Notes under the pieces: model-generated
Databases searched by the model: none
What the model was told of the DNA's origin: nothing
Seen by the model: the letters and a program-made list of their open reading frames with translations, nothing else
Assembly: GCF_000315625.1 (NCBI RefSeq)
Contig: NW_005434536.1
Coordinates: forward strand, 1 to 64,000
Direction: 5' to 3'
Length of the DNA stretch: 64,000 nucleotides
DNA from: Guillardia theta CCMP2712
Lineage: Eukaryota > Protista > Cryptophyta
Shown here: in pieces, positions 1-41,466 of the stretch
Layout: every line of letters begins with the position of its first letter
How positions within the stretch are numbered: the first letter of the stretch is position 1
Translations under genes and position numbers: made by a program

Positions 1-3000
1 ACCCACCCGGCTGACAGGCTCACCTGACCGGTCACGTGACACATCACGTGACCGAGACAAGACTTTTTTATATCGCACATCCAAAAACCCATAGGACATT
101 TCTCCCAGGGGGAAGAAAACCTCCCTTGACCCCCCTGTTTCTCGACGGATCCTGCCGGCCGGGCCCGTCAGTAGACCGACTGCAGCCTTCAGCCCCGCCT
201 CAGACCCCCTGGAGGCCCGCCAGGAGGCTAAGTGTCCGGAGATTGGCCGGGGGCCTGATCTCTCCGGGCGGCCGTGACCGGTCAGCGGACCGTGTCAGCA
301 GGCCCGTGACATGTCAGCCGGCTGACAGGGGCCGTGACCCGGCTGACAGGCTCACCTGACCGGTCACGTGACACATCACGTGACCGAGACGACAAGACTT
401 TTTTATATCGCAGATCCAAAAACCCATAGGACATTTCTCCCAGGGGGAAGAAAACCTCCCTTGAACCCCCTGTTTCTCGACGGATCCTGCCGGCCGGGCC
501 CGTCAGTAGACCGACTGCAGCCTTCAGCCCCGCCTCAGACCCCCTGGAGGCCCGCCAGGAGGCTAAGTGTCCGGAGATTGGCCGGGGGCCTGATCTCTCC
601 GGGCGGCCGTGACCGGTCAGCGGACCGTGTCAGCAGGCCCGTGACATGTCAGCCGGCTGACAGGGGCCGTGACCCGGCTGACAGGCTCACCTGACCGGTC
701 ACGTGACACATCACGTGACCGAGACAAGACTTTTTTATATCGCAGATCCAAAAACCCATAGGACATTTCTCCCAGGGGGAAGAAAACCTCCCTTGACCCC
801 CCTGTTTCTCGACGGATCCTGCCGGCCGGGCCCGTCAGTAGACCGACTGCAGCCTTCAGCCCCGCCTCAGACCCCCTGGAGGCCCGCCAGGAGGCTAAGT
901 GTCCGGAGATTGGCCGGGGGCCTGATCTCTCCGGGCGGCCGTGACCGGTCAGCGGACCGTGTCAGCAGGCCCGTGACATGTCAGCCGGCTGACAGGGGCC
1001 GTGACCCGGCTGACAGGCTCACCTGACCGGTCACGTGACACATCACGTGACCGAGACAAGACTTTTTTATATCGCAGATCCAAAAACTCATAGGACATTT
1101 CTCCAGGGGAAGAAAACCTCCCTTGACCCCCCTGTTTCTCGACGGATCCTGCCGGCCGGGCCCGTCAGTAGACCGACTGCAGCCTTCAGCCCCGCCTCAG
1201 ACCCCCTGGAGGCCCGCCAGGAGGCTAAGTGTCCGGAGATTGGCCGGGGGCCTGATCTCTCCGGGCGGCCGTGACCGGTCAGCGGACCGTGTCAGCAGGC
1301 CCGTGACATGTCAGCCGGCTGACAGGGGCCGTGACCCGGCTGACAGGCTCACCTGACCGGTCACGTGACACATCACGTGACCGAGACAAGACTTTTTTAT
1401 ATCGCAGATCCAAAAACCCATAGGACATTTCTCCCAGGGGGAAGAAAACCTCCCTTGACCCCCCTGTTTCTCGACGGATCCTGCCGGCCGGGCCCGTCAG
1501 TAGACCGACTGCAGCCTTCAGCCCCGCCTCAGACCCCCTGGAGGCCCGCCAGGAGGCTAAGTGTCCGGAGATTGGCCGGGGGCCTGATCTCTCCGGGCGG
1601 CCGTGACCGGTCAGCGGACCGTGTCAGCAGGCCCGTGACATGTCAGCCGGCTGACAGGGCCGTGACCCGGCTGACAGGCTCACCTGACCGGTCACGTGAC
1701 ACATCACGTGACCGAGACAAGACTTTTTTATATCGCAGATCCAAAAACCCATAGGACATTTCTCCCAGGGGGAAGAAAACCTCCCTTGACCCCCCTGTTT
1801 CTCGACGGATCCTGCCGGCCGGGCCCGTCAGTAGAGCGACTGCAGCCTTCAGCCCCGCCTCAGACCCCCTGGAGGCCCGCCAGGAGGCTAAGTGTCCGGA
1901 GATTGGCCGGGGGCCTGATCTCTCCGGGCGGCCGTGACCGGTCAGCGGACCGTGTCAGCAGGCCCGTGACATGTCAGCCGGCTGACAGGGGCCGTGACCC
2001 GGCTGACAGGCTCACCTGACCGGTCACGTGACACATCACGTGACCGAGACAAGACTTTTTTATATCGCAGATCCAAAAACCCATAGGACATTTCTCCCAG
2101 GGGGAAGAAAACCTCCCTTGACCCCCCTGTTTCTCGACGGATCCTGCCGGCCGGGCCCGTCAGTAGAGCGACTGCAGCCTTCAGCCCCGCCTCAGACCCC
2201 CTGGAGGCCCGCCAGGAGGCTAAGTGTCCGGAGATTGGCCGGGGGCCTGATCTCTCCGGGCGGCCGTGACCGGTCAGCGGACCGTGTCAGCAGGCCCGTG
2301 ACATGTCAGCCGGCTGACAGGGGCCGTGACCCGGCTGACAGGCTCACCTGACCGGTCACGTGACACATCACGTGACCGAGACAAGACTTTTTTATATCGC
2401 AGATCCAAAAACCCATAGGACATTTCTCCCAGGGGGAAGAAAACCTCCCTTGACCCCCCTGTTTCTCGACGGATCCTGCCGGCCGGGCCCGTCAGTAGAC
2501 CGACTGCAGCCTTCAGCCCCGCCTCAGACCCCCTGGAGGCCCGCCAGGAGGCTAAGTGTCCGGAGATTGGCCGGGGGCCTGATCTCTCCGGGCGGCCGTG
2601 ACCGGTCAGCGGACCGTGTCAGCAGGCCCGTGACATGTCAGCCGGCTGACAGGGGCCGTGACCCGGCTGACAGGCTCACCTGACCGGTCACGTGACACAT
2701 CACGTGACCGAGACAAGACTTTTTTATATCGCAGATCCAAAAACCCATAGGACATTTCTCCCAGGGGGAAGAAAACCTCCCTTGACCCCCCTGTTTCTCG
2801 ACGGATCCTGCCGGCCGGGCCCGTCAGTAGACCGACTGCAGCCTTCAGCCCCGCCTCAGACCCCCTGGAGGCCCGCCAGGAGGCTAAGTGTCCGGAGATT
2901 GGCCGGTGGCCTGGGGCCTGATCTCTCCGGGCGGCCGTGACCGGTCAGCGGACCGTGTCAGCAGGCCCGTGACATGTCAGCCGGCTGACAGGGGCCGTGA

Positions 3001-5597
3001 CCCGGCTGACAGGCTCACCTGACCGGTCACGTGACACATCACGTGACCGAGACAAGACTTTTTTATATCGCAGATCCCAAAACCCATAGGACATTTCTCC
3101 CAGGGGGAAGAAAACCTCCCTTGACCCCCCTGTTTCTCGACGGATCCTGCCGGCCGGGCCCGTCAGTAGACCGACTGCAGCCTTCAGCCCCGCCTCAGAC
3201 CCCCTGGAGGCCCGCCAGGAGGCTAAGTGTCCGGAGATTGGCCGGGGGCCTGATCTCTCCGGGCGGCCGTGACCGGTCAGCGGACCGTGTCAGCAGGCCC
3301 GTGACATGTCAGCCGGCTGACAGGGGCCGTGACCCGGCTGGACAGGCTCACCTGACCGGGTCACGTGACACATCACGTGACCGAGACAAGACTTTTTTTA
3401 TATCGCAGATCCAAAAACCCATAGGACATTTTCTCCCAGGGGGAAAGAAAACCTCCCTTGAACCCCCCCTGTTTCTCGACGGGATCCTGCCGGCCGGGGC
3501 CCGTCAGTAGACCGACTTGCAGCCCTTCAGCCCCGCCTCAGACCCCCTGGAGGCCCGCCCAGGAGGCTAAGTGGTCCGGGAGATTGGCCCGGGGGCCTTG
3601 ATCTCTTCCTGGCGCCGTGATCCGGTCAGCCGGAACTGTTGTCATCAGGCCCGTGAACATGTCAGCCGGCTGACAGGGTCCGTGACCCGGCTGACCAGGN
3701 NNNNNNNNNNNNNNNNNNNNNNNNNNNNNNNNNNNNNNNNNNNNNNNNNNNNNNNNNNNNNNNNNNNNNNNNNNNNNNNNNNNNNNNNNNNNNNNNNNNN
3801 NNNNNNNNNNNNNNNNNNNNNNNNNNNNNNNNNNNNNNNNNNNNNNNNNNNNNNNNNNNNNNNNNNNNNNNNNNNNNNNNNNNNNNNNNNNNNNNNNNNN
3901 NNNNNNNNNNNNNNNNNNNNNNNNNNNNNNNNNNNNNNNNNNNNNNNNNNNNNNNNNNNNNNNNNNNNNNNNNNNNNNNNNNNNNNNNNNNNNNNNNNNN
4001 NNNNNNNNNNNNNNNNNNNNNNNNNNNNNNNNNNNNNNNNNNNNNNNNNNNNNNNNNNNNNNNNNNNNNNNNNNNNNNNNNNNNNNNNNNNNNNNNNNNN
4101 NNNNNNNNNNNNNNNNNNNNNNNNNNNNNNNNNNNNNNNNNNNNNNNNNNNNNNNNNNNNNNNNNNNNNNNNNNNNNNNNNNNNNNNNNNNNNNNNNNNN
4201 NNNNNNNNNNNNNNNNNNNNNNNNNNNNNNNNNNNNNNNNNNNNNNNNNNNNNNNNNNNNNNNNNNNNNNNNNNNNNNNNNNNNNNNNNNNNNNNNNNNN
4301 NNNNNNNNNNNNNNNNNNNNNNNNNNNNNNNNNNNNNNNNNNNNNNNNNNNNNNNNNNNNNNNNNCAGGCTCACCTGACCGGTCACGTGACATATCTAGT
4401 GACCGATACAAGACTTTATTATATCGCAGATCCAAAATCCCATATGACATTTCTCCCAGGGGCAGAAACCCTCTCTTGACCCCCCTGTTTCTCGACGGAT
4501 CCTGCCCGCCGGGCCCGTCAGTAGACCGACTGCAGCCTTCAAGCCCGCCTCAGACCCCCTGGAGGCCCGCCAGGAGGCTAAGTGTCCGGAGATTGGCCGG
4601 GGGCCTGATCTCTCCGGGCGGCCGTGACCGGTCAGCGGACCGTGTCAGCAGGCCCGTGACATGTCAGCCGGCTGACAGGGGCCGTGACCCGGCTGACAGG
4701 CTCACCTGACCGGTCACGTGACACATCACGTGACCGAGACAAGACTTTTTTATATCGCAGATCCAAAAACCCATAGGACATTTCTCCCAGGGGGAAGAAA
4801 ACCTCCCTTGACCCCCCTGTTTCTCGACGGATCCTGCCGGCCGGGCCCGTCAGTAGACCGACTGCAGCCTTCAGCCCCGCCTCAGACCCCCTGGAGGCCC
4901 GCCAGGAGGCTAAGTGTCCGGAGATTGGCCGGGGGCCTGATCTCTCCGGGCGGCCGTGACCGGTCAGCGGACCGTGTCAGCAGGCCCGTGACATGTCAGC
5001 CGGCTGACAGGGGCCGTGACCCGGCTGACAGGCTCACCTGACCGGTCACGTGACACATCACGTGACCGAGACAAGACTTTTTTATATCGCAGATCCAAAA
5101 ACCCATAGGACATTTCTCCCAGGGGGAAGAAAACCTCCCTTGACCCCCCTGTTTCTCGACGGATCCTGCCGGCCGGGCCCGTCAGTAGAGCGACTGCAGC
5201 CTTCAGCCCCGCCTCAGACCCCCTGGAGGCCCGCCAGGAGGCTAAGTGTCCGGAGATTGGCCGGGGGCCTGATCTCTCCGGGCGGCCGTGACCGGTCAGC
5301 GGACCGTGTCAGCAGGCCCGTGACATGTCAGCCGGCTGACAGGGGCCGTGACCCGGCTGACAGGCTCACCTGACCGGTCACGTGACACATCACGTGACCG
5401 AGACAAGACTTTTTTATATCGCAGATCCAAAAACCCATAGGACATTTCTCCCAGGGGGAAGAAAACCTCCCTTGACCCCCCTGTTTCTCGACGGATCCTG
5501 CCGGCCGGGCCCGTCAGTAGAGCGACTGCAGCCTTCAGCCCCGCCTCAGACCCCCTGGAGGCCCGCCAGGAGGCTAAGTGTCCGGAGATTGGCCGGG
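1..5597. repeat. Tandem array of a 332-bp GC-rich, palindrome-rich unit (~17 unit lengths including the gap; probably continues left of the window)
   Basis: The same unit recurs in register at 36, 368, 703, 1035, 1365, 1696, 2028, 2360, 2692, 3031, [gap], 4386, 4718, 5050 and 5382. Copies are near-identical with a few indels and one recurrent SNP (GTAGACC/GTAGAGC). The last partial unit ends at ...GAGATTGGCCGGG (5597). Confidence 0.99.
3700..4365. other. Assembly gap (666 N) inside the tandem array
   Basis: Run of N. The flanking repeat copies degrade toward the gap, as low-quality read ends do. Gap length is about two repeat units. Confidence 0.99.
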
Positions 5598-16299: not shown

Positions 16300-17019
16300 A
16301 TGTCGTCGAAGGGCCAATCCAAGGGAAAGGCCGCTCCTACTCACCGTGTGCGGACTAAGATGCCGGATGTCTTCGAGTCGCAGGGTGTCATGTTCACTGC
16401 ATTCGAGCAGAGTCAGTACGATGAGACCTTTGATGTTAGCTATGGGTGGGAATTCAAGGACTGGTTCAAGACTGTGACATCGTCTGAAGAGAGTAAGCAG
16501 CACAATCATGTATTCTTTGTGAAGAAGAGTCCGATCACTGAGAAATGCTTTCCCTGCTTTGACATGGTTCCACCTGCTGCTTTCACCCTCAAGCACAACA
16601 TTCAAAAACTTCAGTGCCCTGAAAAATACAAAGAGAAGGAATTCCAAGCCCGTTGTATACTGTGCGGATTGGACGGGGACAGGGCACACAAGGGCTGTTC
16701 TATGGCATTGGTGACTCGGACTCTCACCAGGAAGGACAAATCATTCAGCGTGGAGAGTCTGAAGTATCCTACTGAGATCAAGAAATTCTTCGGTTTCTCT
16801 TTGTGCAGCCCGCATGCCAACCAGCTTGACGACTGTTGTAATGCTGTACTTATCAATATCGTGAAGCAGTGTATGAAGTCACACTCCGATGTTCTGGTCG
16901 ATACCCTCGTCTTTCGCAAACACAACGACGTTTTTGTCAAGGACATACCTAAGCGAACGGTGAAACCTGCGCTTGACTTGGTTAAGGAGAATCCGGAGCT
17001 CATACCTTCCTCATCGGAA

Positions 17020-17055
<36 letters not shown>

Positions 17056-17886
17056 GAGGATGGTGACGAAGGAAGTGATATTTTCTCTGCATTGGTACAG
17101 AAACAGAACAAGCTGAAGGAACAGGACAAGCAGCAGGAAGCTCCCAAGGAGCCCGCTGAAAAGGACAAGCAGCAGGAAGCTCCCAAGGAGCCTGCCAAGA
17201 AGGACAAGCAGCAGGAGCCTCCCAAGGAGCCTGCCAAGAAGGACAAGCAGCAGGAGCCTCCCAAGGAGCCTGCTGAGAAGGACAAGCAGCAGGAAGCTCC
17301 CAAGGAGCTTGCTGAGAAGGACAAGCAGCAGGAGCCTCCCAAGGAGCCTGCCAAGAAGGACAAGCAGCAGGAAGCTCCCAAGGAGCCTGCCAAGAAGGAC
17401 AAGCAGCAGGAGCCTCCCAAGGAGCCTGCCAAGAAGGACAAGCAGCAGGAGCCTCCCAAGGAGCCTGCCAAGAAGGACAAGCAGCAGAAAGCTATTTCAG
17501 AATCTGCCTCGAAGGATGATGAAATTTTCGACAATGCTCTGAATGTCATCATGAGAATGAAAAATAAGCTCAAGGACAATTCTATTGAGCAGGAGAAAGA
17601 GGAACTGATCAAGGAGAGCCGTGAACTGAAGCGCAAACTCGAGCAAGTGACCCAAGAGTACAACAAGCTGCAGAAGGTAACCGACAGTGTGATCAAGAAG
17701 TCGGACGAGATGAACAATTTCCTCCGTGCTAAGTACCGGCAGAGCTTAGAGCAGAACAAGGTAATCGAAGCTGAAAATGTAATGCTCAGGGCTAACCTGG
17801 TACTTTGTGATGAGAAGCTATCCGCTTTCCAGCATGTGGCACATGATCTTGACAAGTTCAGGGATTGCATCAAGCAGTCAAAGTAA
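16300..17886 (+). CDS. Hypothetical protein: Cys/His-rich domain, poly-Asp, 13-aa repeats, C-terminal coiled coil (528 aa)
   Basis: CILCG...HKGC...CSPH; D11 tract; nine DKQQE(A/P)PKEPA(K/E)K units; long heptad region. Confidence 0.85.
17020..17052 (+). repeat. (GAT)11 microsatellite encoding poly-Asp
   Basis: Read directly from the sequence. Confidence 0.95.
17125..17487 (+). repeat. 39-bp coding minisatellite, 9 full copies plus a partial
   Basis: GACAAGCAGCAGGA(A/G)(G/C)CTCCCAAGGAGCCTGCC-type units in tandem. Confidence 0.97.
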
Positions 17887-17976
17887 CTATGTGTGCGTGT
17901 TGTGTATGTACTTACCTTGTGGAGAGGAAGTATAACAGTCGTGATTAAAGCGTACCTTCAAAACACACTACTAGGG

Positions 17977-18654
17977 ATGTGGCCCATCGCCTACGATACC
18001 ATCCTTAATCTCTTCATATCCCGCGAGCGGGAGGAGCGAGAGGAGAGGAGGAGGAGGCAGGAGGAGGAGGCGCGCCAGACCCGTCTCATCTCACCCCTCC
18101 AGCTGCGTATGCAGGCAGTCAGGGGGGTGGAGCAGAGGAGGGAGGAGGGCATAAGGGACATGGATGGCTTCAAGCGAATGCAGATGTGCCGCGACGCGCT
18201 TTCGGCGATCGACCAGAGGGGTTGGAACCGCTCTTACCATCAGCGGGAGTTTCACAACGATTTCCTCCGAGCCTGTGCCCGTGTGTTCTGGAAGACAGAC
18301 CCGCACGGCCAGTTCAGCCGTGATCACCAGAGGATCTTGGAGCTCAACGGATGGGACCACCTCGCGCAGGAGATCCTTGTCAGCACGCCCCGTCGATTCG
18401 GCAAGACCATTTCCGTGAGCATGTTTGCGGCGGCGATGATGTTCTCGGCCCCTGGGGTGGAGGTGTCGATATACTCGACCTGTAAGCGCATCTCGCAAAA
18501 ACTCCTCCGCAACATACAGAAGTTCCTTTACATCATATACGAGCAGATGGGGGTACAGGCTTACAAGGTGATCCGTATGAACATGGAAGAGGTCGTTGTC
18601 CAGGGTCCTGAAAGCAGGCAGGATGTCAGGATTGTCAACTCCTATCCTTCCAAG
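17977..18654 (+). CDS. DNA-packaging terminase ATPase subunit, N-terminal part (putative exon 1, 226 aa)
   Basis: Q-motif RSYHQ; Walker A LVSTPRRFGKT (STPRRFGKT at 18382-18408; compare herpesvirus VPRRHGKT); motif IYSTCKRIS; ends IVNSYPSK at AAG|GTGATA. Walker B and the nuclease domain are missing. Confidence 0.85.
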
Positions 18655-18739
18655 GTGATACCCGCATGCCGCGCTTGTCTTGTACTTGTTACTGACCCAC
18701 CCGGAGCGGACGCGATCCGGTGTTGACTGACACTGGCAG
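18655..18739 (+). other. Predicted spliceosomal intron (85 nt), or the 5' part of a much longer intron
   Basis: Donor AAG|GTGATA; two ACTGAC branch-like motifs (18691, 18726); acceptor ...CACTGGCAG. Confidence 0.55.
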
Positions 18740-18858
18740 GTCGCTTACAACTTCAAAATTTATCGAAGAGGTGAAAAATTTCGAGTTTTACCTGAAATTA
18801 TTCGGGTGTTGAAATCTTTTTAAATTTCGATCAATTTTTTGAAATTTGTTTTTTTTTG

Positions 18859-18884
18859 GAAAGGCCACGGGGCCGTGGCTTTTC
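18859..18884 (+). other. Stem-loop flanked by T-runs
   Basis: GAAAGGCCACG-GGGC-CGTGGCTTTTC: 11-bp stem with one G-U pair. Confidence 0.55.
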
Positions 18885-19089
18885 AAGAACTTTTTTTTTA
18901 TTTCCCCTACCCCCACCCATAATTTCCCAATCGGGGGAGACTGGAAATGGGGGTGGTAATTGACTCTCCGCGGTATTTATTGGGGGCAGGGCGGTGAGTG
19001 GATTTTCAGAATTGCGCCGTCCGATGCTGCCACGCGCTCCGGATGGTAAGGCGGGTGGGTGTTACGCTGAGGTGAGCCTGCGCTTTAGT

Positions 19090-22000
19090 ATGACCAGTGG
19101 TATGTCTTATGCCAGCATTATAAGGGGTGATGCATGCTATGCCGAGGGTGGGGGGAGCGGGGTGGAGCCTTGCGGCGGAGGACCGCGGCAGCCGGAGGAA
19201 AGAGGGTGTGTGGAAGAAGAGGGTGCAGCTGGTACGGGGTGTGATATACAGCACGAGCTCGAGCTCGACGGGAACCTGGACATGAGTTTCCATCCGGACG
19301 GCTTCGGTGACTTCTTCGATACATATCCCGACGAGAGTGCAGGTTAATTGTTGATCCTTTCTTGATTTTTCTTTCTTGTTGCTTGTTTCTTGGATTCATA
19401 AATTATCTTACTATGTGTGATTGTCATCAGGACTCCCATTATTTTCAGATCAGCGCATATTTGAAGCGAGAAGCAGCGAGGCACTCCCTCCCCCTCCCCC
19501 AGCGGACCACTCAGAGGAGGATGAAGGGAGTGATAAGGACAATGAAGGTGAGAGATAGATGAATGGGGAGAAAATTTGATATGATATGCAATGCAGGTAA
19601 TACAAGCAAGAAGGAATTCATCGTTTTCAGAGATAAAGGTGTCACGGAATATGTGTGCTCAAACGACAAGAGCTTGCGCTCAAAACAGTCCGATTTCTTC
19701 ACGAAGAACAACAAGGAAATACGCTCGTTTCTTTCTGATGTCATGAATGGTCTGGAGTTTGACGGAGTCTTCAAAGATAAAGATTACGTTGTGATTGACT
19801 TCAATCGCTGCATGGGTATCGCCGGCCCCATCATTGCCCGCCTTCACCAGAAGCTGCTGATGGACAAGGATGGGGCAAAGTGTTGTGCCCGTCTGATCTC
19901 CTCCCTGAAGCAGATGCGAGAGGAGGACGTGCAGCACTCGGAGGCCAAGATTAAGCAGCTCGAGTGCCTCCGAGTCTGTGACATGGACTTCTTCAGCTAC
20001 CTCTGCTTTCTCCTCAGCCTGGGCTGCAACCGGAAGATCGACTCCATGGAGGGGAGTGCCATTTACAGTCGTCATATCGTCCCCTGTCTGCAGGAGCTTA
20101 CCTGCACCACACAGTTGGCCGATGTGGATGTGAGGAGCATCATGATGCTAGGCAGCTGGCACATGGTCAATGCCTTCCAGACCTGCTGCGTGAGCCGGAA
20201 GGGAATTGCCTCTATTTGGGGCAGCGTGTGCATCGCGGAGGAGAGGGCGATGGAATTCCTCCGCTCTATCGATATTATTTGCATTTACCGGGGGACGGGA
20301 ATCAAGGCCAACAAGCACCTTACTGAATACCGCACCATAGTGCAGAGGGCGGTGTGGACCACCGTCAACGGACTAATGGGCGTCTTCTACAAGAGAATGG
20401 AGGACGCGTGCGCCAAGATTCCAATCTCTTACATGCGGAAGAATCAGATGTCAGATGTGGGCATGCAGAGCTGCGTGAAGCTCTCTGATTACCTTTCCCT
20501 GTTACCCTTCACCGAATACATCCCTGCAGGTTACTACTACTTCACTCCGACGGAGAAGTACGCCTTCTTCGTGCAGGGCATATGCGCCATCACCACCTTC
20601 CACTTCGACGACTTGAAGCCGAGGGTGGAGATTTTTCTCTATGTCAAGAATTGCAAGATGCCCGGCACTCCTTGGACCATACCACTCCGATTCCTACTCT
20701 CCAAGGAAATGTGCACCTGGGTGGTCGACTGGAGACAGTTCCAGCATGAAATCTTCACCGCCGTCAAGCAGCGTCGTTGCATCATTATGCGGAAGGGCAA
20801 GGTCGATGTCAACTTTGTACCGGAGGAGCATTTTGTGAGGAATGGGAAGATTCCGCATGACGTGAAATCATACAAGGTTGTCAGCCAGTTTCAGACCAAG
20901 GAGACATGCATGTCGATTGTCGGGAATTTGAAGCTCCTTATTGGGAAGTCGGATTCGATGCTGTTTAACATCCGGGATGAGGCCAACCGACCCGCCCTTA
21001 CCGCCTACGGGAGCCATGCAGACGCCGTCTTCAACATCATGAGGGAGGCGGTAAAGTTTGAAGAGCTCGGTAAGCTCCGGGTCCTTCCCGAGGAGAGTCT
21101 ACAGAACGATGTCATCTTTACCAGATCCATCAGCGCATTGATAAGGAAGTTGTCCAGCTCCACCATGGTGAATCATGATAATTTGATCAGCATTTTGCGT
21201 CTTACCCTTGCCCTGTGTGACCGTGAAAATATTGGGAGGTGTATCTACGACAGCATCCGTGGTATCTTCGAGCAATTCTATTCCTCCCTCGAGTTTGGAG
21301 ATGGCAGCTGTATCCGTCTGGAGTTTGATGAAGAGAAGGTGCATGAGTTTGCCATCCTTTGCCTTGGCGCGGATGGTCCATCTGAAAAGGCACCACTTCC
21401 AGACAGCCATAAGCGCAAGGAGATGGAGTCAGGAACTCCCTCTGACAAGATCCCGCAGCAGTCGCCATTCAAGATTCCGAAATTGCCAACTTCCAATGTT
21501 TTGGAGCAGCCACCTTCAAAGGTCCCGGAGCAATCGTCGTCGAAAAACACTCCTGCCCCTGATGTACCTGAGACAGAATCATTTATTCATAAGGACGATA
21601 TTGTGCCCTGCGATCTGGTTGAAATCATCTTCCTACCGCAGGAAGAGGAAGTGATGGAGACTGAAGAAAAAGGATCCGACGAGCCTGCCCCGCGTGAAAA
21701 TGTCGAAGAATTGACGAATAACGCAGAGGTGCTACTGCAGAGCGCCAATCAGATCATGCAGCAAAAGACTTCGAATGAGCCATCCTTGAAGAAGAAGAAG
21801 CCATCAAAGGATGATCCTAGGATTGAAAAGCATGCCGCCATGATCAATGACTTCCTCGACAAGCTCAAGGTCGACGACAGGTTGCTGAAGCAAACCCTTT
21901 TCATGTGTCAGACGGACATGGTCTTCATGGGTTCGGACCTGGACTACTGGAGCCTGCGGAGCAAGAAGCTGGAGAAGGGAGACCCGCTTAACCTTCAGGA

Positions 22001-22208
22001 TGTCGTCGTCTGCTTTGTCCAGAGTTACACCATGAAAATGAACAAGATGAAGGTCGGGACTGACTTCCGCGAGCGTATGAAGAGCTTTTCAAGAGATGTG
22101 GTGAATGATAATCTCGAGTTCATGATGCATTCCTTCGACGAGACGATGGGGATATGTGACTACATGATCAACATTGCTCGGAAGAACATGAAGTTTATGA
22201 TCGTTTGA
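19090..22208 (+). CDS. Large hypothetical, probably nuclear protein; predicted three exons 19090-19342, 19431-19547 and 19597-22208 (~993 aa; 5' start uncertain)
   Basis: Two phase-1 GT-AG introns join ORF 18994..19347 to the 881-aa ORF in frame. NLS-like PSLKKKKP; Pro/Ser-rich linker. Confidence 0.75.
19343..19430 (+). other. Predicted spliceosomal intron (88 nt; alternative in-frame acceptor at 19448)
   Basis: CAG|GTTAAT...TCATCAG; very T-rich; contains an in-frame stop. Confidence 0.65.
19548..19596 (+). other. Predicted spliceosomal intron (49 nt)
   Basis: AAG|GTGAGA...ATGCAG|GT; AT-rich; contains an in-frame TAG; removal gives ...DNEG-NTSKKEF in frame. Confidence 0.7.
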
Positions 22209-22248
22209 GTCTATTTATTAATACTTATTGATGAATTGAAAAGAGAAG

Positions 22249-22638
22249 ATGAGCATGACCGATTCACAGATCGTGGGGGGCGTCCTGTGCTTCCTTCTTA
22301 CATCCATCGCATACTTCATGCTGTATTACATCTTTGTTTTCCCTGAACTCAAGAAGAGGGATTCGCAGGAGACTTATCTTAGTGTGTGGCACTGTCTGCT
22401 CACCCTCTTCATGGCGGGCGGCGTCGCCCTGACCTTCATTCTCTCCTCGAGCGCCAACGGGGAGCAGCAGCTCGCCTTCTACACAACCCTTGTCTTTGGG
22501 TTGGTGTACTTCTGTTGCAACGAGATCGGCATCACTATCCTTCGGCAGAGTTTGACCAAGCCCATCCCGGATCTGTCTCCCTTCTCCTGGGATGTCGTGC
22601 AGACATACCAGAGGAGGATGACGCGGGATGGGATCTGA
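22249..22638 (+). CDS. Small three-TM membrane protein (129 aa)
   Basis: Three hydrophobic segments; lies directly upstream of the portal-like gene. Confidence 0.75.
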   Translation: MSMTDSQIVGGVLCFLLTSIAYFMLYYIFVFPELKKRDSQETYLSVWHCLLTLFMAGGVALTFILSSSANGEQQLAFYTTLVFGLVYFCCNEIGITILRQSLTKPIPDLSPFSWDVVQTYQRRMTRDGI

Positions 22639-22685
22639 GATGGGGAGGGGATATAACAGCCGCGCGGGCGCCCTGCCCGAGATCG

Positions 22686-24233
22686 ATGGACGGTGGGGCT
22701 TACAAGCGCATGCGCATGTCGCAGGATGCGATGATGAGGAAGGAGAAGTTCAGGAGGCACGATGAGGAGGAGAGCTTCTGGCAGCTGATGGAGATGGCAA
22801 GCTACGAACCCGTCATCAATGTTTCCTTTTCGACGATACAGGCGATGTGCCTTTCAAGAGACATAGACGTTGTCGTCGATAAGAAGCCCAGCATCCCTGG
22901 ATTCAAGAAATTTTTGAATATGTATTACAAGCCCTTCCTTGCCCACTGCATCCGGAGCTTCTTCGTGTGCGGCTTCGCGGCCGTCCGCTTCCGCAGGCTC
23001 GCCAGCGGGGACATCGTGCCCGAGTGCCTCCCGCTCGGCAGCTTCCGCTGGACAGTTGTCGCCAACCCGATGAGGAGGGACGGACAGGGAAACGAAGGCT
23101 CCGGCGCAGACAACATCAAGCCCGACGCACAGGAGCCCGCGAGCAGGAAGACCTACCTCCCCAAGTTCACGCCCAGGGAGAGCGACGAGAGCAAGATGCT
23201 CCGCTACAAGATCACGGTGCTTACCGGCAATGTCAAGGAGAACGAGGTCTACGTCTACGAGTTCGTGCAGCCGACCTTCAACGTGTCGGGCAACTCCCGC
23301 TTCTACGCAACGGTCAGCAGCCCGATGGCGGGCCTGATCCATGAGTACCGGGACCTGCGCGAGGCGAGGGCGAGGCGCTCGATGGCCGACGCCTGGAACA
23401 CCAGGGCCCACGTCGTCTGCTCGCTCAAGGACAGCAAGATACCGACGGACCAGCCCAGGGAGAACTTCCTGGCCACCCAACTGACGCTACCCGCCGTCCG
23501 GGCCGAGCACAACCTCTTCCTGGCCAGCCTCGCCGAGGAGGAGGGTATGCAGGCAAGGAAGGTCACCGAGCAGATCGAGGAGGAGTTCCTGGAGAATTCA
23601 GGCAACCATCCCCCGCTCCTGCACATTCTCCCGAAGAACTACGACAGCCAGATGCTCGGCCAGTTGAACCCGGTCGAGGACATATCCCTTCTCTACAACC
23701 AGTGGACGAACTCAGTCTTCCAACTGTTCAAGATCCCGCCCAAGATGATGATCGGGAACCTGGGGCTCACCAAGGAGGCCGGCATGAACCAGCGGATATT
23801 CTCGGCCGAGATGCAGCAGCTCTGCATGCATCTGCGAGCCTTGGCCGGGAATGTCTACTCCATCATCTACGGGGAGGAAGACCCACACAGGGTCAACTTC
23901 GTCATCCAGCCCGCCCCTAAGATCGACGTCGAGAGCATCGAGGACCTCAAGATGCTCTTCGAGATCGGCTCGATCAAACCATCCACCGCTGCTAAACTGT
24001 CGGATACGCTCATCAACGCGGATAAGGACATCCTTGCGAGTGTGAACGGGAATATGGGTGGTATGGTCGGCGTCCCGGGAGAGATGGGGGCGATGAAGGA
24101 TCGGAATGAGTCTAAGGAGGACAGGGATGCCGGGAAGGTTACAAGGACCGAGCTCCAGTACCAGGCCCCGAAGAAGGCCACCCCCGCCAAGTTCGCGCCA
24201 CCGCCCAAGGAGCCAGTGAGTAAGAAGAAATAA
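22686..24233 (+). CDS. Portal protein, HK97-type fold (515 aa)
   Basis: Collinear portal-like pattern: EPVINVSFSTI; FLAHCIRSFFVCGFAAV..RR...GDIVPECLP; ILPKNYD; VFQLFKIPPKMM; IFSAEMQQL; LFEIGSIKPS. ATATAA at 22651 and AATAAA over the stop. Recognised by eye only. Confidence 0.7.
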   Translation: MDGGAYKRMRMSQDAMMRKEKFRRHDEEESFWQLMEMASYEPVINVSFSTIQAMCLSRDIDVVVDKKPSIPGFKKFLNMYYKPFLAHCIRSFFVCGFAAVRFRRLASGDIVPECLPLGSFRWTVVANPMRRDGQGNEGSGADNIKPDAQEPASRKTYLPKFTPRESDESKMLRYKITVLTGNVKENEVYVYEFVQPTFNVSGNSRFYATVSSPMAGLIHEYRDLREARARRSMADAWNTRAHVVCSLKDSKIPTDQPRENFLATQLTLPAVRAEHNLFLASLAEEEGMQARKVTEQIEEEFLENSGNHPPLLHILPKNYDSQMLGQLNPVEDISLLYNQWTNSVFQLFKIPPKMMIGNLGLTKEAGMNQRIFSAEMQQLCMHLRALAGNVYSIIYGEEDPHRVNFVIQPAPKIDVESIEDLKMLFEIGSIKPSTAAKLSDTLINADKDILASVNGNMGGMVGVPGEMGAMKDRNESKEDRDAGKVTRTELQYQAPKKATPAKFAPPPKEPVSKKK

Positions 24234-24250
24234 ATCGTATATTCGTATAC

Positions 24251-27200
24251 TCACGGCATCCTCACGACCGCGGCCTGCCCGGCGGGGATTGCGATGTGGA
24301 TGAAGGAGGTGACCCTCCGGTTGGCAGTGAGCCAGTCTGAGAAGGTCGGGGGCCAGTGGTAGGCGGTTCGCATCCAGAAGTAGGAATAACTAGCAAGATC
24401 TGCCTCCCCACACCTTGCCTCCGCGTAGCGAGACGCGATGGAGGTATACAGAAGCAGATTATCGGAGAGCCAGGTTGTTGCCTGGGAGGTGCAGGCCGAG
24501 GGGGAGTCCGGGAGGCGGAGCAGGTCGACCAGACCAATCGTGCTCGTCTGGGTGACGCAGTACATGGGGTAGTCTCTGAAGCAGGCCTTCTGGAATGTAT
24601 CTGAGAGGACGAGGTGGCTGGTACCTTGGGTGAGGAAGACCCTACTCTGGTCCATCAGCCCGCGGATCAGGCCCGGGAGGAGATCGCCGATGGCGTGGAT
24701 GAGGACGATTTCAATCCTTGTCACCCCAGGGACCCCTATCCTGACCGACAGCAGAGAGTCCTGTATCGACTCGGACAAGGAGGGGAATTCAATGCCTGAT
24801 GTGTAAGGTATCCAGGAGCTGTTCAGCCCGAAGCGGAAGGCGGCGGGTAGCTTCCTTTCGTCCACCGAGACGAGGCTCGCCGTGCAGGTTTCCAGGAATT
24901 TCTCTGTAAGGGCCACCCCTGTGAAGGCATAGCCACCTTTCCTGGAAGCCAGCAGGAGGGTGATCCTTGCTGTGTCGAAGTCATGGTAGAGGTGGGGTGT
25001 TTGAAGGACGACGTACATGGGCCAGCCCGGGCGCCAGGTGAAGAGCGTCTCGCAGTGCGTCCCGGCCGTGTTCTGGTCGATGACGACTGCGCCGTGGAGT
25101 GCTGGGCTCGCGGACCAGCACGAAGGGAGTGGAGCCAGGCTTGCGCAGATCCTCTGCTCGTCGATGACATCCCACCCCTTCCAGCCACCGTAGCGGAGGA
25201 TGTAGGTCATGGCCTGGGCCCTTACCAGGAGCTCCTCGTCTCCCTCGAAGACGAAGCGGGCGGCGTATAGGTTCGAGCCTGCGAACCGGTACAGTGAAAG
25301 AGAGAGGTAGGAAACCATCCCCGGCTGCACCTTCTGGATCACCGACATCGAGGCCGACACGCCCCGGCTGTAGCTCACCCTGTGGTAGACCGTGTGGTAC
25401 GTCGTAGATAGTGTAGAGTCTACCTGGATGAACATGGCCGCGATATAGAAGCTGCAGTTCAGCCACCCCTGACCCCAGGGCGTGCAGTTCACGACGGGCT
25501 CCAGCGCGGCGGCGTCGATGGAGAAGCGGTAGAGCCCGCCGTAGGCCGGGGTGAGGTCCATGAAGCCGTACGTGTCCTGCCCGTAGGGGATGTACCTTTC
25601 GTAAAATGCCTTCTCTAGCCGCTCACAATCGCAGGTCCCATTGGGGCAGGCCTGGTACGTGACGGAGAGGGAGGCGGGGAGGAGTTCTTCAGAAGTATCA
25701 CTCTGGATCTCGGAAAGGCAGCACGCCTTGCATTCGACCTCTGGTATGCTCTTAGAAAGATACAGAACAGGGATTGATGTCCCAGAGGTATGTTTGAGCA
25801 GTATACTCCCGGTGATGGCATCATGAAACCCATCACCTGAAACATTTGTGATGATCAGATCGTCAGTGACGGGGGAGAGGAGCTTGGATTCCGGCTGACA
25901 TGCGTCGTAGTCCTCGTCGAGGATGTAGCCCGGGTCGCAGCGGGCCAGGCAGGAGTAGTCGGTGACGAGGTAGTGCTTGGCGATGCTGTCGCTGAGAGGG
26001 CAGGACTGGCAGGGTTGGTCTCCCAGTCCCTTCTTGAAGGAGAGCGTGCCGCAGGGGACGCAGGTCTTCGTAACATTGGCCTTGGAAGCAAGACCGTAAT
26101 CTGGGATACACTTACACATATCACTCGAGTTGGAGGCACTGCTTGCTGTTGTAGTGTAGAGGCCGACGGCTGTGCACGGGCTGCAGAACGAGGAAGCGGG
26201 AAATTCGGAGAAGTAGCCCACCCAACACGAGACGCATACCTCCGCGTTGCTCAGGGAGGGTTTGTAGCTTCCAGGACTGCAAGGACTGCATGTGTCCTCC
26301 CCGATCCTCTCATATCCTGACTCACAGATGCAACCCTCGATGTTCGCGGTGCTAGAGAGGGACAGGGAGTGATTCGGGCAGGGCAGGCAGCTGGTGGAAT
26401 CCACCGCCCCGTACTCGGGCTGGTACGTGTTGAAATCGCAGGAGGAGCAAGGGAGGTTGCTGACGCCGGGTTTGTAATGCCCAGGGTAGCAGGTCCGGCA
26501 GCCCTTCAGAGGTACCAGCGGGTCGATCGGAGTGTTACCCGGGAGGCAGCGGCAGCTCCCTGTGCTCTGGCTTCCCGTAAAGAGCGTCGTCATACCGGAG
26601 GGGCAGGGGACACAGCCTGAAATAATCTCGATTGAGTTCGATGCGTAGTAGCCTTCTTTGCAGGGGGGGCAGGATGCCTGCCCCTGGCCGATGCCGGAGG
26701 TGCCGAGCGGGCAGTATTCGCAGTACAGCGAAGCATTCTCGGGAGTGTAAGACCCCCTCTCGCAGGGACGGCAGGCATCGTTCAGCGTGCTATCCTTGTA
26801 TTTACCAGGTGGGCAGGCCGTGCAGGTCATGTGGTAGCCCCCCGACGCTACTGGCTGCAGTCTGTACTCGTACCCTGGGACGCACCGGCAGTCATACTGG
26901 AACTCCGCCGCGGTCTTGTACGTGATGGAGTTGGCCGGGCAAGCGAGGCACTGGTCGGCTCGGGTGGCGGCTGTGATGGGCTGGTAGGTATCGAAGTCGC
27001 AGGGGATGCACGCGGAGGACCCGTTGGTGTCTTCGTAGAAGCCCGCGGGGCAGGGCTCGCACTTGTGTAGCGCAGGAGAGTCTCCAAAGTAGCCCGGGGG
27101 ACAGGGCTCGCAGAAGAGCATGCCGGGACCCCGGTAGTGCCCTATCAGGCAGGCCACGCACTGGTAGACCCCCGCAACCAGCTGGATCTCGTATCCGTCC

Positions 27201-39200: not shown

Positions 39201-41466
39201 ATGGTTCCATTACTGTAGTCTTCTGCATGGTATATAGCCCATGGCCGTTTGTTTTTTAAAAGATTGTTAAAATTCTTGTAGGTCTGTACGCTGTAGTAAG
39301 AATTCCATGGATTATAAGTATATTCCCCTAATGCACACGGTGTGCAGACAGAAGCATCCGAGGTGATTTCACCGGTGAACCCGGCCTTGCAGTAGCAGTC
39401 AGTCACGGAGGTGCTTCCTAACAGGCTGGTAGCGTTTCCAGGGCAGCTGTAGCACGATGGATACAACCCAAGTAGCTGTGCACGATACGTTCCTGCAGGG
39501 CAGGTGATACACTTGAAGTTGTTGCAACCTTCACACTCGAATTGGTACTTGATCACCTGGTTGGAAGCGCAGCTGTCACATTCCGGCCTGTAGGTTACAC
39601 AGTTTTCACACGGAGCTGATCCAATGGTTATCTTGAAGGTGCCGGTAGGGCACACTGTGCAAGCCTGGCTCCCGTCCACCCCCGTGTACCCCACATTGCA
39701 CACACACCCCAGTGAGGAACTAGTACCCCGGTTCCGCGTGGTACTCTCTCCCGTGCAGGCCACACAGTCACTCCCGGTGGTAGACCCGGTCGAAGTCAGG
39801 TACTTCCCAAAATCGCAGGCTGTGCAGACGGCGTCGTTGGAAATGGTATCTTTGTAATGACCCGCTGGGCAAGACATGCACACGCCCTCCTGCGGCGCGT
39901 AGAAACCAGGCTGGCAGAGGCAGTCCCGTAATTTGGACGCACCCGTTATTACAGTCTGCGAGTGGGACCCGCACTGAATGCATGATGTCTGCATGCTCTT
40001 ATCCTGGTAGGTATTTGCAGGACAGACGGCGCAAGATTTTCCTACTATTCGTGTACCCGGCACGCAGAAGGTGTAGCAGTCTTCGTTTGAAGTCGACCCC
40101 GTGTTATCTGTGCTCTTTCCGCTCTCACAGGTGGTGCACGCCGTCTGCGCGGGCGAGCTGGCGTAGGATCCTACAGGGCAGTCCTGGCATGTGAGGGAGG
40201 AGGTGCCGAACTGGCCTGCAGGGCAGGGGTAACAGCTGTCTCCAATGGGATAGTACCCTTGATTGCAGACACATATGTATGACATTCCCGACGCTTGCAG
40301 CAAGCTGTTCTCTTGGCAAGGGATACATTGTGATGAAGAGGTCGACCCTATTGCTCGGGTATAGGATTGAGAGGGGCACGGTGTGCATTTCGATTCGTGG
40401 CTTAGGGAGGTCTTGTAGGTCGCAGCAGGACAGGCAATACATGTGTCTTTAAGTTCGATAACCCCCACCGAAAAGTATGTGTTCCGGTAATACCCGGGGA
40501 TGCACATGCATGATTGTTGCGAAGTACTCCCCGTATCGGAGGTTGACTTGTAAGAATCACATTTGGTGCACTTCTGGTTGGACATTTCACCTTTGTACCA
40601 CCCCACTGGCAGGCCGTACAGCTGCCACTCACCAGCTCATACCCAGCCACGCACATGCAAGAAGACACACCCAGTCGGCTCCCCGACACTGTTCCCGTGT
40701 TGTCCGGGCAGTTCGTGCAAGTTCCCGATGAAAATTTGGAACACCCGCTGAGGTACTGTTTATCACTGCAAGAATCTGCATAAGTGCTACAGCTTATGCA
40801 TGTCCCCGCGGTGCCACCCCCACAGCCCACCAACACGTGGTCCGCGGGACAATTCACCGAGGCGCAGCTCTTGCAGGGGGACTGGATCGAGTCGGTGCAC
40901 TGCTCGTAGTAGAAACCCGAGGAGCAGGAGCACGGAAGGCATGTTCCACTTGAAAGGCCACCACAGCCACTCTTGTAAAATCCAGAAGGGCAGTCATTGC
41001 AACTCAAACAGCCTACATACTGCCGCGTAAAGTACTTGTTGATTACGTGCACCATACTATTGAACCATTGAAAGGCACCGCAGCTCGGGGTGAAGCACTG
41101 GGTGTCTCTTGTACCCGTGCAACTGTCTAGGACCGCAAGCTGGCCCCCGCCGCATCCGCTGCATAATCGGCAAAAACTCAAACTCTGGTAGTTTGGTTCG
41201 TAGGTGTATCCACGGTTGCATGCACACCCCACCCGGATGACGCTCTTGTACTTGGGAGAGCACCAGATTATAAAACAACTCTCTCCATCCGGAACACTTG
41301 TATATCCCCATTCATAGATGTATGCATTGTATGCACAGATAGCAATGGAATTAGCCTTGATCAAGTCCACCCAGTCCTTTTCAAAAATTCGAAAAAAATC
41401 GGATCCATGGACTATGCATACACAACAGAAAAAAAAAACATAGAGCGCACACACCCTGCTCTTCAT
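24251..41466 (-). CDS. Giant secreted Cys-rich repeat protein (~5,738 aa once one frameshift near 40601-40604 is repaired)
   Basis: ORF 40402..41466 carries the signal peptide and ORF 24251..40606 continues it. Many ephrin-receptor-like/GCC2-GCC3 repeats (CxxCPxGxY...CxCxxG). LamG-like domains at ~38580-39270 and ~35450-35990, an F5/8-fucolectin-like domain at ~31750-32130, five Ca-binding EGF repeats at ~30140-30770, and a unique C-terminal ~530 aa. Confidence 0.85.

Follow-up and report, generated by a model that had tools for sequence, protein, structure and literature searches.

Upstream of an open reading frame (ORF) of 881 aa (19563-22208) in Guillardia theta CCMP2712 DNA, an earlier note had seen two small spliceosomal introns, which raises the question of whether this gene is spliced and by what machinery. 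We addressed it in a window of 64,000 nt (contig NW_005434536.1, the whole stretch of DNA that was analysed and to which all positions refer). With a probability of about 0.88, the two segments, which are inserts missing in a close ortholog, are ordinary major-spliceosome GT-AG introns of a cryptophyte mirusvirus-type gene, whose predicted removal by the nuclear spliceosome of the host would give a protein of 1015 aa. The features on which this reading is built are collected in Table 1.

Table 1. Features of the spliced gene and its neighbours (positions in the window; a slash marks a splice boundary).
Feature	Position	Strand	Remarks
Terminase large subunit, ATPase (N-terminal) half	17977..18654	+	Walker A motif; ends before Walker B
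Orphan terminase donor AAG/GT (predicted trans-splice donor) and acceptor-like site	18655..18739	+	CTGAC and CAG/GT 85 nt on
TATA-like TATTTATT	18974..18981	+	50 nt before ATG 19024; putative promoter element, by pattern match only
Exon 1	19024..19342	+	106 codons and one base; likely start ATG 19024
Intron 1 (predicted)	19343..19430	+	88 nt, CAG/GTTAAT..CAG/G, phase 1, 53% T; absent from P0002/P0005; junction used by P0139
Exon 2	19431..19547	+	117 nt (multiple of three), acidic and poly-Pro; poly-Pro common to P0001, P0005 and P0135
Intron 2 (predicted)	19548..19596	+	49 nt, AAG/GTGAGA..CAG/G, phase 1, purine-rich; absent from P0001/P0004 and P0002/P0005; junction used by P0139
Exon 3	19597..22208	+	Conserved central region, acidic linker, small C-terminal domain; no known family
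Portal protein	22686..24233	+	No intron; AlphaFold2 model pLDDT 64

Coordinates, lengths, GT-AG ends, phase, AT richness and internal stops of both segments were all as the earlier note had described them. Their AT content is 0.70 (intron 1) and 0.63 (intron 2), versus 0.40-0.50 in the three exons, and both carry stops in the frame of the preceding exon; intron 1 is open in one other frame and intron 2 is stopped in all three. Without splicing the frame ends after 107 aa, and after 148 aa if only intron 1 is cut out. Removing both introns fuses the three segments in frame, as had been proposed, into a single stop-free frame of 1015 aa (19024-22208), and the ATG of the 881-aa ORF, at 19563, falls inside intron 2. 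A scan of both strands from 5600 to 64000 for AG/GT..YAG/G segments of 40-110 nt that are AT-rich relative to their flanks returned only these two, its thresholds having been set in the knowledge of their values, which makes it no independent test. An assembly error was considered and rejected, since other contigs agree across both introns and no single indel escapes the stops at 19556 and 19560. The contigs of X1, possibly the source of the window, cover 17500-19717 with zero differences; for X3 the coverage is 18913-19905, where a 1-nt gap at 19150 is the sole departure; both X1 and X3 may share the assembly of the window. A freshwater metagenome run (X6) has contigs identical to 19184-19354 and 19352-19560, a hint that the intron-bearing form may not be confined to one assembly, as the exact match runs over intron 1. 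A raw RNA run that may be free of the element (X9, which carries the species label of X1; 19.8 million records, roughly 6% of the run) placed 13 reads on 17500-24300, one of them at at least 99%, with zero junctions, and two further RNA runs of the same standing (X12 and X15) placed zero reads on the region, which none of the three runs covers.

The most likely start of the coding frame is ATG 19024, not 19090, where the earlier note had begun its region, while both introns do lie within that region. ATG 19024 appears the likelier start because its first 8 residues are identical in the ortholog P0005 and because, of the 13 differences listed for the X6 relatives in the stretch from 19024 to 19090, 11 are at third codon positions (a probability of about 2e-4 if one in three is expected there, by a hand calculation on a table without contig ends). 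The sequence TATAACAG, a candidate late promoter, occurs at 17931, 46 nt ahead of the terminase start codon, and at 22652, 34 nt ahead of that of the portal, and is absent before ATG 19024. A sigma-70 scan gave no signal above shuffles and is not relevant here.

Among 3609 candidates, the 881-aa ORF has 3 homologues near its length. The N-terminal extension, which the earlier note had suggested looking for in homologues, is found in P0002 and its cluster mate P0005 (67,380-nt contig), both of which hold exons 1, 2 and 3 as one uninterrupted open frame. Residues 1-190 of the spliced model align with P0005 straight over both junctions (118 of 187 columns identical), and the homology breaks off at the GT and picks up at the AG. 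A terminase relative (P0140) and a portal relative (P0138) are listed on contigs of the size of that of P0005, 67,380 nt; since P0140 reads through the unspliced terminase donor, the equal lengths indicate that the P0005 contig is probably DNA and not a spliced transcript. In P0001 and P0004 the poly-Pro stretch runs unbroken into exon 3, hence these sequences are without intron 2; as they are called from a start immediately ahead of the poly-Pro, intron 1 is not scorable in them. The gene is absent from all 80 related terminase loci examined, and scans of viral contigs and of metagenome contigs with the gene or the terminase gave no match to the DNA of the relatives.

The splice signals of the two introns are of unequal quality. 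Intron 2 has a strong donor that fits AG/GTRAG, and intron 1, with its T-rich body, a weaker GTT donor; at the terminase site of the clade, 56 distinct GT donors comprise 21 GTG and 7 GTT. Pyrimidines amount to 64% for intron 1 and 41% for intron 2 in the last 25 nt, the latter thus being without a pyrimidine tract. Neither CTGAC nor CTAAC occurs in either intron, and the yUnAy sites that resemble branch points, at -21 and -18, are no more than chance would give, arising in 60% and 16% of shuffles. An origin as introner elements was rejected, as no second copy of either intron longer than 11 nt was found in the window and none at E<=0.1 in the 80 loci; the splice consensus by itself would produce the CAGG and AGGT repeats seen at the junctions. 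Shintron or MING-1 introns were likewise rejected, the segments being 88 and 49 nt long and carrying no gene.

The element is mirusvirus-type, because a terminase half with an orphan donor lies upstream of the gene and a portal gene downstream. The terminase half gave a weak PHROG terminase large subunit match at E=0.049, a weak Pfam DNA_pack_N signal (seen in 4 of the 30 members that were aligned, at best with E=0.0081), zero matches to PDB sequences and 131 homologues of 292-2000 aa; no nuclease half was found in the window by motif. Among the best 80 of 429 confirmed related metagenome loci, 78 show the same terminal motif, with GT directly behind it in 69 of these, and none of the 78 reads on in frame to a Walker-B-like motif over the next 45 residues. 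The 65 distinct donor sites comprise 56 GT, 8 with GT four or five bases on and 1 GC. The terminase donor is shifted downstream by four or five bases in L010, L011, L021, L027, L033, L035, L040 and L049. The portal model returned 22 PDB matches with Foldseek at E<=0.001, the listed ones being chains of phage portals or necks, among them the HK97 portal at E=1.3e-4. No HK97-type major capsid protein (MCP), no triplex proteins and no host genes were recognised in the window.

The DNA behind the terminase donor has features of its own. Between 18655 and 18745, two CTGAC sites and the CAG/GT at 18739 lie in a stretch well kept in an X6 relative and in the read-throughs P0140, P0141, P0144 and P0145. 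Cis-splicing to 18739 would restore an AAG/GT donor, as in recursive splicing, and a similar site is found in only 1 of 48 distant clusters. Of 75 loci, 22 have a motif like the T-loop of tRNA at most 200 nt downstream of the terminase donor, as do 9 of 47 clusters formed at 90% identity, while elsewhere the motif has a frequency of 0.0015 per 200 nt; the 22 loci include L024, L025, L028, L047, L048, L053, L058, L060, L061, L067 and L077, and the motif is absent from the window. ARAGORN called 5 tRNA genes in 38 selected loci, all within 200 nt behind the terminase donor. Such a tRNA-like element might sever or terminate the 5' half of the transcript that enters trans-splicing; in the one paper searched for the term tRNA (PMC12768974), the main text lacks it.

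That paper (Medvedeva et al., Nat Microbiol 11:228) gives, in its text, 37,703 introns in 17,119 mirusvirus genes, mostly GT-AG, with sizes that peak near 80 nt and positions that vary among close relatives; it describes a split terminase whose ATPase half ends before Walker B and is trans-spliced in nuclear mirusviruses, and it notes introns in decaying endogenous elements. Our element resembles the Mirusviricota described there in having short GT-AG introns in a large herpes-related protist virus, a split terminase and intron positions unequal among close relatives, and the CTGAC behind its terminase donor equals the Styxvirales branch consensus of that text. It differs from that account in that the intron-bearing gene belongs to no known family and is not one for virion morphogenesis, that the portal and the terminase half are without cis introns, that a strict scan finds two candidate cis introns in 58 kb, and that the host can be named. 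The latency genes of Punuivirus, in the account of bioRxiv 10.64898/2026.10.09.758095, likewise belong to an endogenous algal giant virus with spliceosomal introns in some genes; Punuivirus differs in being a nucleocytovirus with expression data.

The 90% cluster of the portal includes a public G. theta CCMP2712 model, XP_005821782.1 (GUITHDRAFT_146916, P0139), from a record of 176,329 nt, and 2189 of the 2194 residues are encoded, without a mismatch, by 16300-23999 of the window. This model already splices at both junctions seen by the earlier note. It is mis-fused, however: five viral genes are joined as one 'hypothetical protein', exon 1 loses its first 68 residues, the terminase donor is treated as that of a cis intron and coding-looking stretches are cut out. 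We therefore regard it as prior annotation more than as proof of splicing, and as weak support. Relatives of the terminase, the portal and the gene occur in the cryptophytes Hanusia phi and Baffinella frigidus, and a literature term search found no paper joining mirusvirus and Hanusia. Zhao et al. (PMC10827195) list the same assembly, G. theta being among three cryptophyte assemblies with clade E03 mirusvirus MCP homologues; the word intron is absent from their main text. Nine searchable supplements of PMC12768974 do not contain the word Guillardia, and its other large tables may list the introns of this genome.

Spliceosomes act in the nucleus, where RNA polymerase II of the host would transcribe the gene from the TATA-like site near 18974; the major spliceosome of the host would then remove both introns, using acceptor 19430 and donor 19548, and the 1015-aa protein would be translated from 19024. 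The dependence on the host spliceosome suggested in the earlier note is thus supported as a prediction, and it is backed by the orphan terminase donor (GT in 69 of 78 loci), a layout described as trans-spliced in the text of PMC12768974. The guess of a host with short introns also proved apt, since the DNA matches a G. theta model and Table 1 of PMC6260743 gives for this species a modal intron of 47 nt (mean 106), in keeping with the 49 nt of intron 2 and the 88 nt of intron 1. Short GT-AG introns in nuclear mirusviruses are already published in the text of PMC12768974 and both junctions are already in a public model; the finding is ordinary for the group. What is added here is a named host, a corrected mis-fused gene model and a likely recent gain of host-sized introns. 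It provides a mirusvirus intron for which the host spliceosome is known (49 nt versus a mode of 47), and a set of orthologs, 73-75% identical, with and without introns, through which the gain of introns by viruses can be studied; should the element prove inducible in culture, cis- and trans-splicing of a mirusvirus could be examined at the bench and not in metatranscriptomes only.

From the comparison of orthologs we infer that both introns were gained recently at AG/G sites in this lineage and not lost in the relatives. For intron 2, gain would be the simpler history, because the intron is absent in two close lineages and the outgroup P0003 has no stop at the site; for intron 1 it is probable, because the intron is absent in one. 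The 97% identity of portal relatives was counted toward a recent gain. The direction is weakly polarised, the three close sequences being unresolved in the tree (bootstrap 59), and the window copy of the gene sits on a long branch (0.24 versus 0.10) that would also fit relaxed selection. The gene is 75% identical to P0001 and the adjoining portal 97% to P0126, which is listed with a contig of equal size: a fast-evolving gene between conserved virion genes. The introns could instead belong to a silent or decaying endogenous copy that acquired them after entering the host nucleus, the free virus being intron-less here and having no need of them. We hold this to be somewhat unlikely. The sequence does lie within the assembly of a eukaryote, on the 176,329-nt record, environmental orthologs are without introns, the neighbouring genes for Cys-rich proteins contain one-base frameshifts and, as the text of PMC12768974 notes, introns occur in decaying elements; but exon 1, exon 3, the terminase half and the portal are intact, no host genes interrupt the window as far as recognised, the X6 contigs are identical to the window across both stretches given above, and the frameshifts may be assembly errors. 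This alternative bears on timing and activity and is compatible with removal of both introns by the host spliceosome, the reading that we prefer.

Splicing may also be real with other boundaries, and here the candidates were scored against P0005 in a search that combined GT or GC donors in 19250-19660 with AG acceptors in 19280-19720 and gave 2510 stop-free two-intron models. The model of the earlier note ranks 2nd (score 597); the 1st (603) differs only by donor 19530 for intron 2, an in-frame site that the note had overlooked and that would lead to 1009 aa. The second acceptor, 19448, is in frame as had been claimed and also gives 1009 aa, at a score of 560, but drops six residues that have counterparts in P0005. 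If exon 2 is skipped, with a single intron of 254 nt and a product of 976 aa, the score is 518 and the conserved poly-Pro stretch is lost. All three keep the frame and the 19530 donor has the top alignment score, yet its context is GGA/GTGATA, against AAG/GTGAGA at 19548, the other two score below 597, and P0139 uses 19430 and 19548; different boundaries are hence improbable, and by alignment acceptor 19430 beats 19448. When the letters of both introns were shuffled, with the search windows limited to about 70 nt round each boundary, a GT-AG model scored as high in 3 of 500 shuffles and within 10 points in 32 of 500.

Because exon 2 is a frame-neutral 117 nt, two spare in-frame splice sites exist and a start codon lies inside intron 2, both introns might be very recent gains, fitted in size to the host spliceosome, in a mirusvirus that resides in a culturable model alga, and might act as a switch between the 1015-aa protein, forms with shorter N-termini and the 881-aa core; the gene would then be a latency or early gene of host style, set among late genes free of introns. 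We consider this speculation quite improbable. That no splicing takes place, two AT-rich insertions having split the gene into the 881-aa ORF from ATG 19563 alone and a separate 107-aa upstream peptide, is very unlikely: ATG 19563 is in frame with exon 3, and the distant homologue P0003 and P0001 as called are without most of the N-terminal extension, but the inserts end exactly in AG/GT..YAG/G and keep the frame (matched in those 3 of 500 shuffles), the open and conserved 39-codon middle exon would go untranslated, and no homologue matches the 881-aa ORF over its first 11 codons.

The protein has 5 representatives among 1.84 billion and no Pfam, PHROG or PDB sequence match. An AlphaFold2 model of residues 20-606 (pLDDT 38) gave no Foldseek match at E<=0.001 and is too poor to inform. 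From its composition, the product is most probably a factor specific to the virus and without enzymatic activity, its acidic, Pro-rich N-terminus being disordered. P0135 and a 1171-nt X6 contig, which matches 19110-19197 and 21839-22319, have an exon-1-like part, the poly-Pro stretch and the C-terminal domain, without the central region of about 600 aa. Judging from these relatives without the central region, the protein is modular.

Downstream of the portal, on the minus strand of 24251-63975, lie about 40 kb of genes for giant Cys-rich TNFR/ephrin-receptor-like repeat proteins of up to 5444 aa, with one-base frameshifts near 40600, 44640 and 49900 that reflect assembly errors or decay. The gaps between these Cys-rich ORFs were considered as additional introns and rejected, being read as one-base frameshifts. 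At the other end of the window, positions 5-5597 form a tandem array of a 332-bp unit, with copies 98% identical, a possible genome terminus or replication origin.
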